5,532 bases of DNA from assembly GCA_003559395.1 (NCBI GenBank), contig PWLL01000037.1:1-5532 (forward strand). The letters are read 5' to 3'. The translations under genes and the position numbers were made by a program. The notes under the pieces were generated by a model. It was not told the origin of the DNA and did no database searches. It was given only the letters and a program-made list of their open reading frames with translations. Shown here piece after piece: positions 1-5,507 of the stretch (positions are counted from its first letter, which is position 1; each line of letters begins with the position of its first letter). The DNA comes from Candidatus Iainarchaeum sp. GTDB taxonomy: Archaea > Iainarchaeota > Iainarchaeia > Iainarchaeales > CSSED10-239.

Positions 1-170
1 ACGACCGCAACGCCCCGGGGTCTGGCGGACAGGGCGGCGGCGGCGACGGCGTCGTCATCGTCGCCTACGCGTACACCGAAGACACCGACGACCCGGCGAA
101 CCTGCAAGCGACGGTGGACGGGTCCGACGTGCACCTGACCTGGGACCCCTCACCGCTGGTGCCCGCATGA
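1..170 (+). CDS. 3' end of a glycine-rich minor tail-type protein (partial; the start lies upstream of the window)
   Basis: The frame is open from nt 3 to TGA 168-170. It translates to DRNAPGSGGQGGGGDGVVIVAYAYTEDTDDPANLQATVDGSDVHLTWDPSPLVPA*. A Gly run followed by DGVVIVAY is the C-terminal signature I associate with glycine-rich minor tail proteins of actinobacteriophages. The stop overlaps the next start (ATGA at 167-170). Confidence 0.7.
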   Translation, partial: DRNAPGSGGQGGGGDGVVIVAYAYTEDTDDPANLQATVDGSDVHLTWDPSPLVPA

Positions 171-511
171 GCTTAGACGTCCAGGTCGAGCACTGGTGGG
201 GTCATCTCCCACTTGAGATCTTCGATGGGCTCGATGGTCCATCGGGAGGGGTGACGCGCATCTATATCCGTCGTGGGGCCGAGACGATGATCCTGTCTGG
301 GTTCGACAACTACTGGATCGGTGGCGAAAGGTTCGGGCTCTTCAACGACGAAGAGAACTTCGACTGGTACGAGGGCGAACAATCGGCAGGGTGGTGTTGG
401 CCTGAAGGCAACAACCCTCGTCGTGACGATCTGCCGATCCCTGACGATGCGATCATGTGGCGTGGCGTGATGTTGCCTGACGATCAGGCGAAGGAAGTGG
501 GGCTGTTATGA
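167..511 (+). CDS. hypothetical Trp-rich 114-aa protein in the tail module
   Basis: This is the ORF given in the track. It has ATGA stop/start overlaps at both ends (167-170 and 508-511), which implies translational coupling with its neighbours. Its GC-rich codon usage matches the flanking genes. It has 7 Trp in 114 aa. I recognise no family. Confidence 0.7.
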   Translation: MSLDVQVEHWWGHLPLEIFDGLDGPSGGVTRIYIRRGAETMILSGFDNYWIGGERFGLFNDEENFDWYEGEQSAGWCWPEGNNPRRDDLPIPDDAIMWRGVMLPDDQAKEVGLL

Positions 512-3153
512 CCACCCGCTTCTTCTTCCAGAACACCTCCAATGAGCCTGGCACGGGGACCGACGAACCGCACGTCCGTGACCTTGCCGAAGCGCAAGGT
601 GATGCGGGGACGGTGTCGAACTCGGCGGGCAACACCTCTACCGACACGGAGGTGATGCGGTTCCAACGGCAGGTCGATGTCGAGGGCATCGAGAACATCG
701 CCGGGTCCATCCGGGTGACGGTGTTGACGGCCGACACGGCGTTCTCGCTGGAACTGCGACGCTACGACTCCAACGGCACGACCCTACTGGGGACGGGTGA
801 CAGGTCGCCTGAGTTCGACACGGTCGGGGTGCACACGTTCTCGCTGAACTCGTTGTCCCTGGACTGGCAAGAGGGCGACGTCCTTGCGATCACGGTCTAC
901 CACCGTCGTACGGGTGGACATGGCGGCAACGACTTCACGGTTGCGACCGGCGATGCGGATTCGTATGTAGATGTGAACGTGGTGGAGGCCGACCCGGTCG
1001 TTGAGGGCAGTGCTGATGATCTCGCCCCTTCAGCCATCGACGAAGTCGCGGGTTCGATCTCGGTCACAGGGTCAGCAACTGAACAAGCGCCTGTTGCTGA
1101 AGATCATGCTCAGGGCGACCTCATCGTCCCGCTTGAAGGGACGATCACTGATACAGCCCCAGTAGCCAGTGATCATGTCCAGGCTGAGGTAACGGTTGCG
1201 GCGACGGGAGAGGATCTCGCTTCCGCAGCTACCGACGAGGTTGCTGGATCGATAGAGATCACGGGGTCGATCGCCGATACAGCCCTTGCGGCAACCGATG
1301 AAGTTCAAGCTCAGGCCAGCGTCACTGGCTCTTCCCAGGACAGTGCTCCGTTAGCAACCGATCAGGTCTCGGGTTCGATCGGTGATGGGGTCGTCGGGTC
1401 CGCTACGGATGAAGCGCCATCGGCGAGTGACCATGCCGTCGGTGAGATCACTTCCACGATCACCTACTCCTCTGGTTCCAACGTCGTCACGGCGGAGATC
1501 GTTAGCGCTGTCGTCACAGGCGCGATCGATGACGCTGCTCCTGTTGCGAGCGATCACGCCGTAACTTCTTTCGCGGTAGACGCGACCGCTGAGGATCTCG
1601 CACCTGTTGCCACGGATCATGCACAGGTCGAGACCACGGTAGTTGTGACTGCCGATGATCTTGCGCCATCGGCGAGTGACCATGTCGAAAGCTCGATAGC
1701 TTCAGAGCCGGGTTCGATCACCGACATCGTGCCATCGGCGAGCGACCACGCTCAGGCCGAGATCACGGTCACGGCCTCAGCCGAGGATCAGGCTCCGAGT
1801 GCGACCGATCACGCAAGCCTCTCTCTGGCTCTTGAGGGTCAGGCGAGCGACGAGGCACTTGCAGCTCATGATCATGCTCAGGGGGAACTGAAGACTTCTG
1901 CTGCTGCGCAGGATGCTGCTGCCTCACCAACCGATCAGATCGAAGGCTCTACCGAGGTCGCGGGTCAGGCAGATGATGTCGCGGCTTCGCCTTCTGACCA
2001 TGTTGAAGGATCGTTCGAGGTTGCGGGTCAGATCGATGACGTTGCACCTTCGTCTTCCGACCATGTTGAAGGATCGGTTCAGGCTGAGCCAGGGACGATC
2101 GCAGATGTTGTTCCGGCTGCTGAGGATGTGGCAGAAGGATCGGCCACGGTCACGGGTACGGCTGATGACCTCGCCCCTTCGGCCACGGATGAGCTGACTG
2201 CAACCACTTCGGTTGTAGGGACGGCGAGCGATACATCCCTCGCAGCATCCGACGATGTGCTGGCAACGCTCATCGCGACTTCGACAGCGCACGATGTCGC
2301 GCCCCTTGCGAGTGACGCGCTCGAAGGAAGCCTCGGGGTCACAGGTCAGGTAGATGACCAGGCTCCTGTTGCACGAGATCATGTCCAGGCCGACATCCCG
2401 GCCGAGCCTGGGACGATCCACGACTTCGCTCCCTCCGTGCATGACGAGGCTCAGGCTCAGGTGAGCTTCTCGGGGAGCGCAGAAGATCTCGTCCCCGCAG
2501 CAAGTGACGAACTCCAGGTCCAGATCACCCTCGATGCTTCCCTGGATGACCAAGCCCCGGCTGCACACGATCAAGCTTCGGCTGAGACTCAGGTCACGGG
2601 GACGGGAGAGGATCAGGCTCTCGCTGCACAGGATCAGGCCGATGCCTCGATCACGGTCACCTCTACCACCGATGACCTCGCCCCTGTGGCGCATGACGAG
2701 GTCACGGGCACGATCACCGAGGCGACCACCGGCACGATCACCGACCAGGCTCCGTCGGCATCGGATCTCGCTCAGGCGGAACTTGCGGTCACTGCCAGCG
2801 TCTCCGACGAAGCGCCTGCGGCGTTCGACGAGATCGTCGGTGTCATACCAGCGATCGGTGACATCACCGACCTCGCTCCCGTGGCGTTCGACCACATCAC
2901 GGGCATCAGTGGTGAGATCCGAGCCATCAGGATCATCGTCGATGGTCCGGGTATCTCCAAGATCGTCCAGGGCGCGAACCGTGCGCAGTTCTTCACCCAC
3001 GGTCCTGGTCAGTCGCACCTCAGAGAGGGGATCGCGATCTCGTATGTGACCTCGGGGGTCGAGATCTCGGCGACTCATATCTTCGGACCAGGGGCATCTC
3101 GTAAGGTTGCGGGACCAGAGGGCTCACGCGTACCCACGGGTCCAGCGATTTAG
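508..3153 (+). CDS. 881-aa repeat-containing putative tail fibre or minor tail protein: N-terminal globular domain of about 168 aa, about 29 x 21-aa acidic repeats, and a 78-aa basic GPG-motif C-terminus
   Basis: It is the longest ORF in the window. An AAGGAAG Shine-Dalgarno sequence lies at 491-497, and the ATG at 508 overlaps the upstream stop. The repeat period of 63 nt is exactly 21 codons. Differences between repeat units are often synonymous, which argues for selection on this frame. It sits directly after a glycine-rich minor tail gene. The tail fibre function is inferred from position and architecture only. Confidence 0.88.
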   Translation: MTTRFFFQNTSNEPGTGTDEPHVRDLAEAQGDAGTVSNSAGNTSTDTEVMRFQRQVDVEGIENIAGSIRVTVLTADTAFSLELRRYDSNGTTLLGTGDRSPEFDTVGVHTFSLNSLSLDWQEGDVLAITVYHRRTGGHGGNDFTVATGDADSYVDVNVVEADPVVEGSADDLAPSAIDEVAGSISVTGSATEQAPVAEDHAQGDLIVPLEGTITDTAPVASDHVQAEVTVAATGEDLASAATDEVAGSIEITGSIADTALAATDEVQAQASVTGSSQDSAPLATDQVSGSIGDGVVGSATDEAPSASDHAVGEITSTITYSSGSNVVTAEIVSAVVTGAIDDAAPVASDHAVTSFAVDATAEDLAPVATDHAQVETTVVVTADDLAPSASDHVESSIASEPGSITDIVPSASDHAQAEITVTASAEDQAPSATDHASLSLALEGQASDEALAAHDHAQGELKTSAAAQDAAASPTDQIEGSTEVAGQADDVAASPSDHVEGSFEVAGQIDDVAPSSSDHVEGSVQAEPGTIADVVPAAEDVAEGSATVTGTADDLAPSATDELTATTSVVGTASDTSLAASDDVLATLIATSTAHDVAPLASDALEGSLGVTGQVDDQAPVARDHVQADIPAEPGTIHDFAPSVHDEAQAQVSFSGSAEDLVPAASDELQVQITLDASLDDQAPAAHDQASAETQVTGTGEDQALAAQDQADASITVTSTTDDLAPVAHDEVTGTITEATTGTITDQAPSASDLAQAELAVTASVSDEAPAAFDEIVGVIPAIGDITDLAPVAFDHITGISGEIRAIRIIVDGPGISKIVQGANRAQFFTHGPGQSHLREGIAISYVTSGVEISATHIFGPGASRKVAGPEGSRVPTGPAI
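1012..2916 (+). repeat. in-frame tandem array of about 29 degenerate 63-nt (21-codon) units inside the 881-aa CDS
   Basis: Residues 169-803 parse into units of 21 aa. A few are 22-23 aa, one is 41 aa and probably holds an extra degenerate unit, and the last is a partial 18-aa unit. The consensus is x-x-D-x-A-P-x-A-x-D-[HEQ]-[VA]-x-[GA]-x-[IV]-x-V-x-G-[ST]. Examples are ADDLAPSASDHVESSIASEPGS and ADDVAASPSDHVEGSFEVAGQ. Asp at unit position 10 is present in all 29 units. Asp at position 3 is present in 28 of 29. Confidence 0.9.
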
Positions 3154-3157
3154 GAGG
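3152..3157 (+). promoter_or_regulatory. Shine-Dalgarno sequence (AGGAGG) for the 113-aa ORF
   Basis: A perfect AGGAGG lies 4 nt upstream of ATG 3162. It overlaps the TAG stop (3151-3153) of the 881-aa gene. Confidence 0.8.
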
Positions 3158-3161
3158 CGAC

Positions 3162-3503
3162 ATGTCCATCACATTGCAGAGAGAGACGACCGAGTACGTC
3201 TACGTCGGGATCCAGGGCAGCACGGTCACCGGTGATGTCGAGATGGCGTTTCTCGAAGCTGGGCTGCGCCCGGACACCGTGGACTGGCACAGCTCGGTCA
3301 AGGTCGAGGACGACCAGAGCCCCCTCTGGGAGGATGCCCAGACTTCGGGGATCGATGGGGACTGGTTCGTCGCGTGTCTGGTCGGGGAGTTCGGCACCGG
3401 GGGCAAGGTGCTCACTCCCGGTGATTACCAGCCCTGGGTCAGGCTCACCGATGACGTCGAGCGACCGGTGCGTATCACCCCGGTCACGGTGGAGATCGCA
3501 TGA
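3162..3503 (+). CDS. hypothetical 113-aa small tail-module protein, predicted beta-rich
   Basis: This is the ORF in the track, with a strong AGGAGG ribosome-binding site and GC-rich codon usage. The pattern ...DW..S...(35 aa)...LTPGDYQPWVRLTDD..PVRI.PV.VEIA resembles small conserved proteins I recall downstream of minor tail genes in actinophages. That recollection is unverified. Confidence 0.8.
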   Translation: MSITLQRETTEYVYVGIQGSTVTGDVEMAFLEAGLRPDTVDWHSSVKVEDDQSPLWEDAQTSGIDGDWFVACLVGEFGTGGKVLTPGDYQPWVRLTDDVERPVRITPVTVEIA

Positions 3504-3530
3504 TCCCTGAAAGGAAGATCGCATGATCCC
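3493..3530 (+). repeat. exact 15-nt direct repeat AGATCGCATGATCCC (3493-3507 and 3516-3530), offset 23 nt, spanning a gene junction
   Basis: Read directly from the sequence. Copy 1 contains the TGA stop of the 113-aa ORF together with an overlapping ATG. Copy 2 contains the ATG of the 71-aa ORF together with an overlapping TGA. Confidence 0.9.
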
Positions 3531-3738
3531 GTGGTTGAGGGTCCCCTATGTTCATGATCCTGCGGATCTCTCATCGATCCACATGGCCGTGGTCACCAAG
3601 GAGATCGAGGAATCCGACTGGAGACCCGCGTACCGGGATACGGTCAAGGGTCAGAAGTACGTTCAGGTCAGGCACACGCTCAAGAAAGGGGAGCAGGTAT
3701 GGATCCGCGACTCGAACGGGATCCGACGAGCCATCTGA
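3523..3738 (+). CDS. hypothetical 71-aa protein, possibly a shortened paralog of the preceding 113-aa ORF
   Basis: This is the ORF in the track. A GAAAGGAAG Shine-Dalgarno sequence lies at 3509-3517, 5 nt before the ATG. It shares motifs with the upstream ORF: [VI]-x-M-A-[FV]..., DW[HR], and L-x-x-G-[DE]-x-(x)-W-[VI]-R. It is short, so the coding call is less certain. Confidence 0.6.
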   Translation: MIPWLRVPYVHDPADLSSIHMAVVTKEIEESDWRPAYRDTVKGQKYVQVRHTLKKGEQVWIRDSNGIRRAI

Positions 3739-3787
3739 CTCCGATGAGTTGTGGACGTGACCTGACAGACGCGCGACCATCGGATAA

Positions 3788-3852
3788 CGCGGCCCCCCGG
3801 TGCCTTCCCAGGTTCCTTCCCCTGATCTGGTTCTCCTCGCCGGGGGGTCGCG
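3788..3852 (+). terminator. GC-rich stem-loop at the module boundary; a non-canonical terminator or regulatory structure
   Basis: Positions 3788-3800 (CGCGGCCCCCCGG) pair with 3840-3852 (CCGGGGGGTCGCG). That gives 13 pairs including one G-U, and two more pairs are possible inward. The loop is about 35-39 nt and pyrimidine-rich. No U-tract follows, so this is not a canonical intrinsic terminator. It lies in the only sizeable intergenic gap (3739-3875), exactly where base composition changes. Confidence 0.35.
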
Positions 3853-3875
3853 CATGACTTCGGGGAGTTGATCTG

Positions 3876-5507
3876 ATGACGATCGATTTCACGCCCGAGG
3901 CAGGACCGAACTATGACGTGTTGGGTCGTGTCGTAACTGTGAATGTTCCGGGAGCTGAGATACTTGCTTCCGAACATGGTGTCGAATGGGCTCTTCGTGG
4001 CGCTACCACGATCGGACTCTCGTTTGGTAATGGGTATCACGGTGTTCTTTGGTTGGACCCCGGTAATGGGCAGGATGCTCAACTTTTCGTTCAAGTTGCT
4101 CGTTTAGATGACACAGGGAAGTTCGTCGATGGTGATTATGCAGTCTTCGATCATACTCATTTCTTCACCAAACTTGTTGATGGCTACCATGATGCGCGAA
4201 TAAATATCGAGGGGCATGAGAATATAGGGTATCCGTTCTTCAAGATCGTAGAACCTGGGAAGGTTCTTGTCGTTGCGAACATCTATGTTTCTAGCGATGA
4301 ACCTGGCTATGGCTCACAATTTAGGGTAGTGACGACTGCGATGGTGGTGTCGTACAGTGGTGGCAGCATCACGGTTGATTTCACTGAAACCTTCGATACG
4401 TACAACAACCCTATGAATCTCAGTGAGACAACATTTTCGTCATGGTTGGCCCAGACCAAACCTATCACTGCTGCTGTTGCATACAAAGATGGGATGTTGA
4501 ACCGCGTCGTTTATAGTCATGGTGGTTCGACGGAGCAGAGGGTCATCATCGTCGCGCAGTACATCGAGTATTCCAACGGGGTCATCGTCGCTCATGCTCC
4601 TTATATCATGCATGATTCCGATGACCTTCCAGAGGTCACGGCAGATCCATCAGCTTGGCTGGGTGCCACATCTGTCGAGATCGATGGCAAAGCGTTCATC
4701 TTCGACGCTATCAGCACAAGTACCGTCCATCCCATGGGGTATTACATCAATGTCTGTGATGAGAACTCGTTGATCGCGCAGCTCAATGTCAATGACCATA
4801 TCAGTCATACAGACTTGTTCAACTTCTGGGGAGCGGAAGAACTCAAGATCGGCAGATTGAAGAATGGCAACATCATCGTGGCGAAGATCGACGTGCGATA
4901 TTACCCCTATGTCTGGGACGTCATAGAAGTAGCGTATGACGGAACGAATCTCAGTGTTGTGAGTTCGACATCAGCCGAGATGTCAAGGTGGCTGTGCGGA
5001 TTCATCGAGTATGAAGACACGGTTGGGTTCTATGGACAGAATTGGGGTAACGAGAGTGTTAGTGGGCAAGAAGCCATCGATTATCATGAGCAGTTCGGAT
5101 TGCCTAATCATGATGAATCTGACGTGTTTACTATCACCATCACTGATGTCACGAGTGCGACTCCAGAGGGAGTGGTTGCACGAGATTATGAGATACCTTT
5201 CAGTTGGCATTATGATTACGGATATAGACTTGTGCAGGAACATCCTTTCACCCATTCCTACTTAGAGAACGGGATGCTCATCTCGATCGGATTGGTGGAT
5301 CCTACAGCAGTATTTAGCTGGGAGGCAGGTGATGTGAGTGGCCTTTCGGGTTGGACGATGCCACTTATCACTGATGATGTGGTCCCTAGTCTCCGCCTCA
5401 TCCAGCGGGACGATGACAACGAGTTCGGTTCCTCACGGATCGAACGGGTCCAGGTATCTTCAGCTCAGAAGAGCGGGAGGATCCCTGGTCCGAACGCCTA
5501 CTGGTGA
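3876..5507 (+). CDS. hypothetical 543-aa acidic, aromatic-rich protein that is compositionally foreign (low GC); candidate distal tail or receptor-binding protein, or a moron
   Basis: It is a 1632-nt open frame in DNA of about 40-50% GC, where stops would be frequent by chance. GGGGAG at 3862-3867 lies 8 nt before the ATG. The alternative-frame ORFs here are short. I recognised no catalytic or nucleotide-binding motif and no signal peptide or transmembrane segment. Confidence 0.85.
   Translation: MTIDFTPEAGPNYDVLGRVVTVNVPGAEILASEHGVEWALRGATTIGLSFGNGYHGVLWLDPGNGQDAQLFVQVARLDDTGKFVDGDYAVFDHTHFFTKLVDGYHDARINIEGHENIGYPFFKIVEPGKVLVVANIYVSSDEPGYGSQFRVVTTAMVVSYSGGSITVDFTETFDTYNNPMNLSETTFSSWLAQTKPITAAVAYKDGMLNRVVYSHGGSTEQRVIIVAQYIEYSNGVIVAHAPYIMHDSDDLPEVTADPSAWLGATSVEIDGKAFIFDAISTSTVHPMGYYINVCDENSLIAQLNVNDHISHTDLFNFWGAEELKIGRLKNGNIIVAKIDVRYYPYVWDVIEVAYDGTNLSVVSSTSAEMSRWLCGFIEYEDTVGFYGQNWGNESVSGQEAIDYHEQFGLPNHDESDVFTITITDVTSATPEGVVARDYEIPFSWHYDYGYRLVQEHPFTHSYLENGMLISIGLVDPTAVFSWEAGDVSGLSGWTMPLITDDVVPSLRLIQRDDDNEFGSSRIERVQVSSAQKSGRIPGPNAYW

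Follow-up and report, generated by a model that had tools for sequence, protein, structure and literature searches.

Which kind of protein gives almost three-quarters of its length to tandem copies of one short motif, and what would such an array do? The question is raised by a stretch of 5,532 nt deposited under Candidatus Iainarchaeum sp. (assembly GCA_003559395.1, contig PWLL01000037.1; hereafter the window), in which a forward-strand open reading frame (ORF) at 508..3153 encodes a highly acidic protein of 881 residues (isoelectric point (pI) 4.05; 0.3% Lys, 16.8% Asp + Glu; homologues P0001 and P0002) dominated by 29 tandem 21-residue units. The analysis presented here suggests that the product is probably a virion fibre protein, most probably of the tail, from an uncultured tailed virus of soda lakes, in which the repeats would form the shaft. 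An initial annotation of the window had already pointed to a structural, fibre-like virion protein, a view that gains support from the fold relatives of the N-terminal domain and from the gene content of related loci.

The repeat array and its relatives

Hand parsing anchored on the D..P...D motif resolves 29 consecutive, in-phase units at 1018..2931 (forward strand; aa 171–808), amounting to 638 of 881 residues or 72.4% of the protein, each with a D-x-A-P-x-A-x-D loop followed by a putative amphipathic β-strand. The number of copies and their share of the protein (about 29 and 72%) had been correctly estimated in the initial annotation. The repeat itself is borne out by protein autocorrelation (0.289 at lag 21, against 0.158 for the highest of 200 shuffles), and by a hidden Markov model (HMM) built from the P0001 and P0002 repeats alone, independent of the 881-residue protein, which recovers 27 units in it against a mean of 0.14 in the shuffled repeat region. 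The limits given at the time, 1012–2916, lie a few residues from those found here, and a period of exactly 63 nt does not hold throughout: 22 units are 21 residues long, three have 22, three have 23, and unit 7 (1408..1530, forward strand; aa 301–341) has 41, owing to an insertion of ~20 residues (TSTITYSSGSNVVTAEIVSAVV) that interrupts the period; AlphaFold2 (AF2) predicts a pair of long strands in this unit (E308-320 and E327-341). Units of greater length close with '...EPGxIx' and recur every 5–6 units, a super-period that accounts for further autocorrelation peaks, at lags 106 and 127; the repeats of P0002 show a comparable five-unit super-repeat.

The unit consensus reads D-[LQV]-A-P-[SAV]-A-[ST]-D-[HEQ]-[AV]-x-[GA]-[SE]-[IL]-x-V-T-G-[TS]-[AI]-x, which keeps the residues of the consensus first proposed while moving its register by two positions. 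In the loop, D1 is present in 28/29 units, D8 in 29/29, A3 in 25/29, P4 in 22/29 and A6 in 25/29, and D8 is followed by His at position 9 in 13 of the 29 units. Across 66 units from four proteins, the even positions 10–20 are occupied by A/V, A/G, V/I/L, V, G/A and A/I/V, with polar or acidic residues at the odd positions; since such a strand is amphipathic, one apolar face must be buried, either within the same chain, as in a solenoid or sandwich, or against other chains, as in a trimer.

Judged from nucleotide divergence, the array is neither a recent expansion nor an assembly artefact. Mean unit-to-unit nucleotide identity is 0.50, with 0.58 and 0.59 at codon positions 1 and 2 and 0.33 at position 3; identity of only ~50%, together with a third position far more diverged than the other two, argues for an ancient array maintained by selection at the protein level. 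Tandem Repeats Finder detects two copies only (1953–2076, period 63, 83% matches), overlapping units 14–16 (1912..2103, forward strand), which are the most alike of the adjacent copies (67–78% nucleotide identity) and, on that measure, the youngest local duplication in the array. A 384-residue antisense ORF (1924..3078, reverse strand) and other long ORFs over the array have no independent support and were taken as by-products of GC-rich repetitive coding sequence.

An exhaustive HMMER scan over 1.84 billion cluster representatives returned 57 matches, of which ~45 align to the first ~165 residues alone; the same acidic D-x-A-P-type repeat was found among the 57 only in P0001, P0002 and P0047. 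A comparison of copy number among relatives, proposed at the outset as a check, gives 29 units in the 881-residue protein and 21, 30 and at least 9 in these three, respectively. The four halophile proteins are 27–36% identical and preserve the amphipathic alternation, and the His at position 9 is absent from the P0002 units.

The initial annotation could place the repeat in no named family, and this still stands: none of the five window proteins scored above threshold in Pfam, PHROGs or NCBIfam, and PDB sequence searches with the 881-residue protein and with a 63-column repeat profile yielded nothing credible. The sole PDB match, 9mt4_Q (expect value (E) 0.063), is of low identity and was read as composition-driven, as was Pfam DUF7094 (11.9 bits, E 0.27, against a gathering threshold of 27 bits). 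The families set aside at the outset are likewise absent on closer inspection: the array lacks the GGxGxDxUx nonapeptide of RTX proteins, has a dominant period of 21, and has no HemolysinCabind match in Pfam; it contains no period-3 glycine pattern and no Pfam match of the collagen type (PF01391); and lags 6, 16 and 18 are not among the top autocorrelation lags, with no Pfam match to hexapeptide repeats (PF00132) or to the ice-nucleation 16-mer. A literature search found no paper pairing a '21-residue repeat' with a phage fibre.

Repeats of 21–22 residues and similar layout, xx[A/L/I/V]-P-x3-[D/E/Q]-x3-G-x-hydrophobic-x-hydrophobic-x-G, occur in the non-halophilic proteins P0015, P0016, P0035, P0041 and P0054, with E or Q at the D positions; examples of their motifs are 'DTLPSMSDAASGGTV..' in P0016, 'ETIPAPVEA..' in P0041, 'xAPKHVQS..G.V.I.G' in P0015 and 'LPFLEQ..' in P0035. 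Because P0043, a coiled-coil protein with a 21-residue period, also scored E 2e-5, a match rejected as a periodicity artefact, these analogues were checked by profile–profile alignment of two-unit profiles with P0043 as the negative control. The halophile repeat aligns in register with that of P0016 (P 3.8e-6, probability 73%) and that of P0041 (5.9e-6), weakly with that of P0015 (5e-4), and has no direct match to that of P0035 (0.07); the coiled-coil control fails (0.15). A wider repeat family that includes the analogues is thus plausible and moderately supported by these alignments, common ancestry of the whole set being unproven.

The N-terminal domain and its genomic context

Ahead of the array lies a domain of ~165 residues (508..1002, forward strand; aa 1–165), modelled as a jelly-roll β-sandwich with a predicted local distance difference test score (pLDDT) of ~90 over aa 1–160, and belonging to an unannotated but widespread family of ~45 representative matches, the non-identical members reaching down to E 1e-17. 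The family shares a conserved start (M..R.YLRNTQT.PGTGG.VYDLS..QG) and the further motifs RR.GGHGN and DADSYVD; the domain stands nearly always at the extreme N-terminus of its protein, is conserved from residue 1, and occurs in named relatives that are all 'hypothetical' and lack any Pfam domain. Foldseek comparison with the PDB returns generic jelly-rolls (the CocE C-domain, tumour necrosis factor (TNF)-like folds, carbohydrate-binding modules (CBMs) and capsid proteins), in addition to a cyanopodophage needle and a cyanophage short-tail-fibre domain. Against BFVD, the domain superposes over ~174 columns (root-mean-square deviation (rmsd) 4.0–4.6 Å, E 5e-7 to 1.5e-5) on long proteins of uncultured Caudovirales, annotated with a collagen triple helix, a peptidase S74/intramolecular chaperone, or a glycine-rich domain. 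Collagen triple-helix and S74 chaperone features are hallmarks of trimeric tail fibres and spikes.

What follows the domain varies between relatives. Contig L004 is 76% identical to the window at the DNA level from the upstream gene as far as nt 998, the end of the N-domain (84% identity at the amino-acid level), and past this point its protein continues into a different, Gly/Ser/Thr-rich repeat of ~22 residues. P0002 has both repeat types in series, and in P0001 the shaft repeat of the 881-residue protein follows another N-terminus and a β-propeller. As read from these sequences, the proteins are mosaics in which one terminal domain is conserved and the rod is swapped as a module, an arrangement typical of receptor-binding fibres. 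The G+C content of third codon positions (GC3) falls from 0.81 in the N-domain (508–1002) to 0.60 in the array (1018–2931), a shift that fits a recombination junction at the border and that may also be explained by the codon constraints of the repeat. The drop coincides with nt 998, where homology to L004 stops.

The N-domain is not exclusive to viruses, since it is present in a cellular protein of 1285 residues (P0039), where it directly follows a signal peptide in a chain that also includes PKD and SprB repeats and a type IX secretion system (T9SS) C-terminal sorting domain; it would there be the cell-distal end. It also occurs as stand-alone proteins of ~165 residues. In the IMG/VR contig L008, a 679-residue N-domain protein (10001–12040) has its own ~20-residue repeat (HSAKxALxGxAxLxAKxxVx) and a C-terminal domain. 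Two genes downstream, at 12351–13514, L008 encodes a 387-residue protein in which N-domain-like motifs can be recognised by eye (e.g. 'TTDSFVEVP'); the two may be paralogous fibre genes in tandem.

Related loci provide the viral context. The repeat protein of contig L001 is followed, four genes downstream, by a terminase large subunit (phrog_9, 3.7e-6). In L008, the N-domain protein follows a tape-measure gene (phrog_339/24) and three small ORFs, with a minor tail protein (phrog_290, 4e-32) as a further tail gene; in L005, a stand-alone N-domain has a 1,094-residue fibre-like protein on one side and tail sheath (phrog_23, 1.8e-68) and tube genes on the other. Among the analogues, P0016, which combines Laminin_G_3 with the repeats, is encoded two genes before a GpA-type terminase (L009), and P0041, whose repeats flank a phytase-like propeller, is encoded by the final large gene in a structural block opening with the gene for a 1,502-residue protein (L010). 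The 'tail-module' label of the initial annotation is therefore sustained in part, by the N-domain relatives near tape-measure, sheath and tube genes and by analogous repeats that end structural blocks; within the window itself, every neighbour lacks an annotation. The window genes lie close together on one strand, with overlaps between start and stop codons, and the gene order is kept in L001 and L003, each with one small acidic protein directly upstream of the repeat gene (overlapping start/stop) and another directly downstream.

The structural-looking proteins of the window and related contigs have a pI of ~4, with Lys below 2% in most neighbours, in contrast to the putative L001 terminase (7134–8549; pI 6.3) and several small proteins of pI 9.5–11.6. 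The strongly basic small proteins include those at 5091–5474 and 7511–8137 of L003 and at 3523–3738 of the window. Acidification thus seems, from composition, to be confined to virion-exposed proteins, which would agree with a low-salt cytoplasm in the host. A 1.2-kb contig from a soda-lake sediment metagenome (L012, JGI) is 99.75% identical to window positions 2723–3934, and L004, the closest relative of the N-terminal part, comes from sediment of Cock Soda Lake (PMC6704655); on both grounds, the source is placed in a virus population of hypersaline soda lakes. Further clues as to an archaeal or bacterial host are the presence of Shine–Dalgarno-like motifs and the 'Halomonas' label of L004, a name that comes from binning a contig of 2.5 kb. 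Among 50,697 GenBank phages, neither blastn nor tblastn found a match for the window, the 881-residue protein, the 543-residue protein encoded further downstream or the L001 terminase, and IMG/VR contains no close relative of the window; the virus would represent a lineage that lacks cultured relatives and has no detectable similarity to any deposited phage genome. Scans of the window for Rfam families, tRNAs, promoters and terminators found nothing.

Fold and role of the array

Two AF2 runs predict a repeat region that is all-β, with a topology that is not robust between them. The first, on the full-length protein with a 45-sequence alignment (mean pLDDT ~61), places one strand of ~14 residues in each of units 8–26, connected by 7-residue loops that hold the D-x-A-P-x-A-x-D motif (pLDDT 55–73); the second, on aa 406–638 with an alignment of non-overlapping repeat tiles from the 881-residue protein and its relatives, places two 8-residue strands in each unit (8+3+8+2), with a mean pLDDT of 60.7 for the best model and 40–49 for the other four. 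Foldseek finds no significant PDB neighbour for the repeat-only model (best E 0.45; template modelling (TM) scores mostly ≤0.3, maximum 0.43). The sub-threshold neighbours are nearly all β-helix proteins (GlmU, LpxD, pectate lyases, ice-binding proteins and SufBD), a dominance that is at most a hint at the level of such models. The structure-prediction check envisaged at the outset returns an all-β repeat of modest pLDDT and no significant structural neighbour.

The initial annotation had favoured a monomeric β-solenoid, one coil per unit, with a core of small and aliphatic residues at the even positions and 29 coils stacked into a single-chain rod of ~14 nm, and this is an unlikely architecture here, neither confirmed nor refuted by the models. 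It is consistent with the strict hydrophobic/polar alternation over positions 9–21, with a period of 21–22 residues, typical of β-helix coils, and with the regular strands and turns of the second AF2 model and the β-helix proteins in its sub-threshold list. However, the AF2 units have one or two strands, not three per ~22-residue coil as in β-helix and pectate-lyase-like proteins, and the 881-residue protein has no Beta_helix or pectate-lyase match in Pfam; the unbroken ~14-residue strands and 7-residue connections of the first model would, on geometric grounds, be incompatible with a parallel solenoid, the four other models of the segment have low pLDDT, and the putative core is mostly Ala and Gly, thin for a self-sufficient solenoid. 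The structural relatives of the N-domain, moreover, lie in proteins of trimeric-fibre type. The estimate of ~14 nm is likewise not established. That the array is instead a mostly unstructured, acidic 'brush' or linker of low complexity is highly improbable: A, S, T, D, E, V, G and P indeed make up the bulk of its composition, and pLDDT lies below 50 in units 1–7 and never rises above ~73, but conservation is position-specific (D1 and D8 invariant; P4, A3, A6 and V16 strongly kept), the alternation survives across four divergent proteins, the third codon position has diverged far more than the first two, and both AF2 runs place regular β-strands in every unit.

Assignment to the tail must also be weighed against an appendage elsewhere on the virion, for example a head fibre or decoration protein, and against an adhesin on the cell surface of a halophile; in this reading, the jelly-roll would bind carbohydrate at the distal end of a stalk made by the repeats. 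The resemblance of the N-domain to CBM, TNF-like and capsid jelly-rolls in the PDB speaks for such a protein, as do its distal position in the T9SS-secreted P0039 and its stand-alone occurrence. The reading is nonetheless quite improbable, given that the 881-residue protein lacks a signal peptide (N-terminus MTTRFFFQNTSNEPGTG), that the genes are packed on one strand with overlapping codons and a terminase is encoded on a related contig, that N-domain proteins of IMG/VR lie inside tail modules, and that strong conservation from residue 1 would be typical of an assembly interface. Several observations weigh against a fibre shaft in the tail: none of the window genes has a recognisable tail function in Pfam, PHROGs or NCBIfam, and placement in the tail derives from distant N-domain relatives, not from this virus; pLDDT in the first AF2 run falls below 50 in units 1–7, as in the C-terminal tail; the two models disagree on topology at modest confidence; and, given P0039 and the stand-alone forms, the N-domain could be a distal binding head instead of an anchor.

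A trimeric fibre, which the initial annotation had listed as an alternative, is better supported, because the N-domain fold matches phage proteins with collagen and S74 domains and the shaft is exchanged as a module; a homotrimer is the favoured assembly, at even odds or slightly better, and well ahead of the monomeric solenoid. In the fibre proposed here, the N-domain would be a conserved, virion-proximal module for attachment and trimerisation; in each repeat, a proline loop bracketed by the two invariant Asp residues would lead into an amphipathic β-strand, and the apolar strand faces of three chains would be buried along a three-fold axis. The stacked units would make a long, rigid and highly acidic rod, soluble in brine, that would act as a spacer fixing the reach of the fibre, its length tuned by copy number and the rod itself exchanged between viruses as a cassette, with the short basic C-terminal tail as a third module. 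The invariant Asp pair, often joined by His, may, speculatively, cap the loop or bind cations; since free Ca2+ and Mg2+ are scarce in soda-lake brines, structural capping is leaned towards. A bolder proposal, tentative and open to considerable doubt, is that the 21-mer is a new β-repeat fold, neither a three-sided solenoid nor the 15-residue triple β-spiral, serving as a length-tunable, cassette-exchanged shaft in phages from soda lakes to those of ordinary bacteria, with the Asp pairs forming a ladder of capping or cation sites.

Neighbouring genes and comparison with known fibres

The C-terminal tail (2932..3150, forward strand; aa 809–881) is rich in K, R and H, relatively basic, and marked by spaced GPG/GP motifs, with pLDDT below 50 from aa 824; similarity to P0001, which has 'EPR' motifs at the equivalent place, reaches only ~aa 833. 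Directly upstream of the repeat gene, and joined to it by an ATGA overlap, a small acidic protein of 114 residues without a family match (167..511, forward strand) is 40% identical to the product of L003 1205–1492 and has further counterparts in L001 (1529–1822) and L004 (~450–795); these proteins (95–114 residues) share the C-terminal motif [ML][IVL]PD[DE]xA[KR]E[LV]GLL and may serve the fibre as an adaptor or in its assembly. The gene before it is represented by its 3' end (3..167, forward strand; 54 residues and a stop that overlaps the next start), glycine-rich with '...GGQGGGGDGVVIVAY...' and ending '...LTWDPSPLVPA*'. Its longer homologue on L004 matches Pfam Gly_rich_2 (PF21722; E 8e-4, below the gathering score), and that on L003 is a Gly/Ser-rich repeat protein of 401 residues with the same C-terminal motif ('...L.WD.SP...').

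A second, unrelated Gly/Ser/Thr-rich repeat of ~22 residues (e.g. TGTFTGSGAGSGSVAGQVTTTG) occurs in this 3–167 product, in L003 3–1208, in L004 2–450 and 792–2561, and at aa 170–260 of P0002, and in L004 and P0002 it directly follows the N-domain; on this distribution, several rod proteins built of repeats seem to be encoded next to one another in these viruses. Downstream of the array, a small acidic protein of 113 residues (3162..3503, forward strand), preceded by the ribosome-binding motif AGGAGG and without a family match, is 34% identical to the product of L001 5201–5512 (E 3.5e-10), and is followed by a basic protein of 71 residues (3523..3738, forward strand; pI 9.5) in an otherwise acidic neighbourhood, at the position of a 73-residue protein in L001 (5512–5733). 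The last ORF (3876..5507, forward strand) encodes 543 residues with no match in Pfam, PHROGs, NCBIfam or GenBank phages and has low G+C (0.49, GC3 0.54, against 0.58–0.64 and GC3 up to 0.83–0.91 in the rest of the window); only its last 44 residues are conserved, with 61% identity to the C-terminus of a 428-residue β-propeller (PQQ_2) protein that occupies the corresponding place in L001. It has, from these features, the look of a cassette of recent exchange that ends in a conserved docking peptide, and its product may be the actual receptor-binding protein.

Fibre shafts set the reach of viruses and are natural engineering scaffolds, and to our knowledge structures exist for just a few kinds of shaft repeat: the triple β-spiral, the triple β-helix, collagen and the coiled coil. 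A clean array of 29 copies with cousins in unrelated phages is thus a good target for structure determination and could add a new shaft architecture; the N-domain family, with dozens of representatives now all 'hypothetical', could be annotated as a fibre module; and the locus illustrates how extremely acidic virion-surface proteins can become in soda-lake brines. The proposed function, that of a spacer rod within an attachment fibre, would be unsurprising to the specialist and brings no conceptual surprise.

Among known shafts, those of adenovirus fibre and reovirus sigma1 are triple β-spirals, trimeric assemblies of short tandem β-repeats (~22 in adenovirus type 2) with a length set by copy number. 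The array described here would resemble them, on general knowledge, in an amphipathic strand per repeat, a turn containing Pro or Gly and a copy-number-set length, whereas the triple β-spiral has a period of 15–16 residues, not 21, and another consensus; PDB sequence and profile searches found no similarity between the two, so that at the sequence level the repeat stands apart from the triple β-spiral class. That the regularity of the array lies 'far above' what is usual in phage fibres, as first stated, was an overstatement, since viral fibres commonly have shafts of regular repeats. The phage fibres with S74 or collagen domains (T5 pb1, the K1F endosialidase type, and Caudovirales proteins of BFVD) share the combination of a conserved domain with a long repetitive rod, and the N-domain superposes on a domain of such proteins (E ~1e-6, rmsd ~4.3 Å); in contrast, the 881-residue protein has no collagen G-X-Y and no S74 domain by Pfam, has a rod built of another repeat not described before, and ends in a short basic tail. 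RTX β-rolls, built on a nonapeptide motif with 18 residues per turn and dependent on Ca2+, are alike in their short tandem repeats and invariant Asp at turns, and the second AF2 model could be taken for a two-sided roll in which every 21 residues supply two strands, although a Ca-dependent fold is unlikely for the repeat in soda-lake brines poor in free divalent cations.

The only solved tail fibre of a halophile virus found in a literature search is gp42 of the haloarchaeal siphovirus HFTV1, determined by cryo-electron microscopy as a metal-ion-stabilised homotrimer, ~19 nm long, with a β-helix segment and a stalk and with no reported 21-residue repeat (PMC12494034); PDB sequence searches found no similarity between it and the 881-residue protein. 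The analogue repeats of P0015, P0016, P0035 and P0041 share the period and layout and all come from phage structural contexts, and none of them is annotated or structurally characterised; they differ in a non-halophilic composition and in fusion to Laminin_G_3 or a phytase-like propeller. Set beside these systems, the function of a spacer rod in a fibre is familiar, and what is new is the repeat family and the N-domain family, both unannotated and without a structural template.

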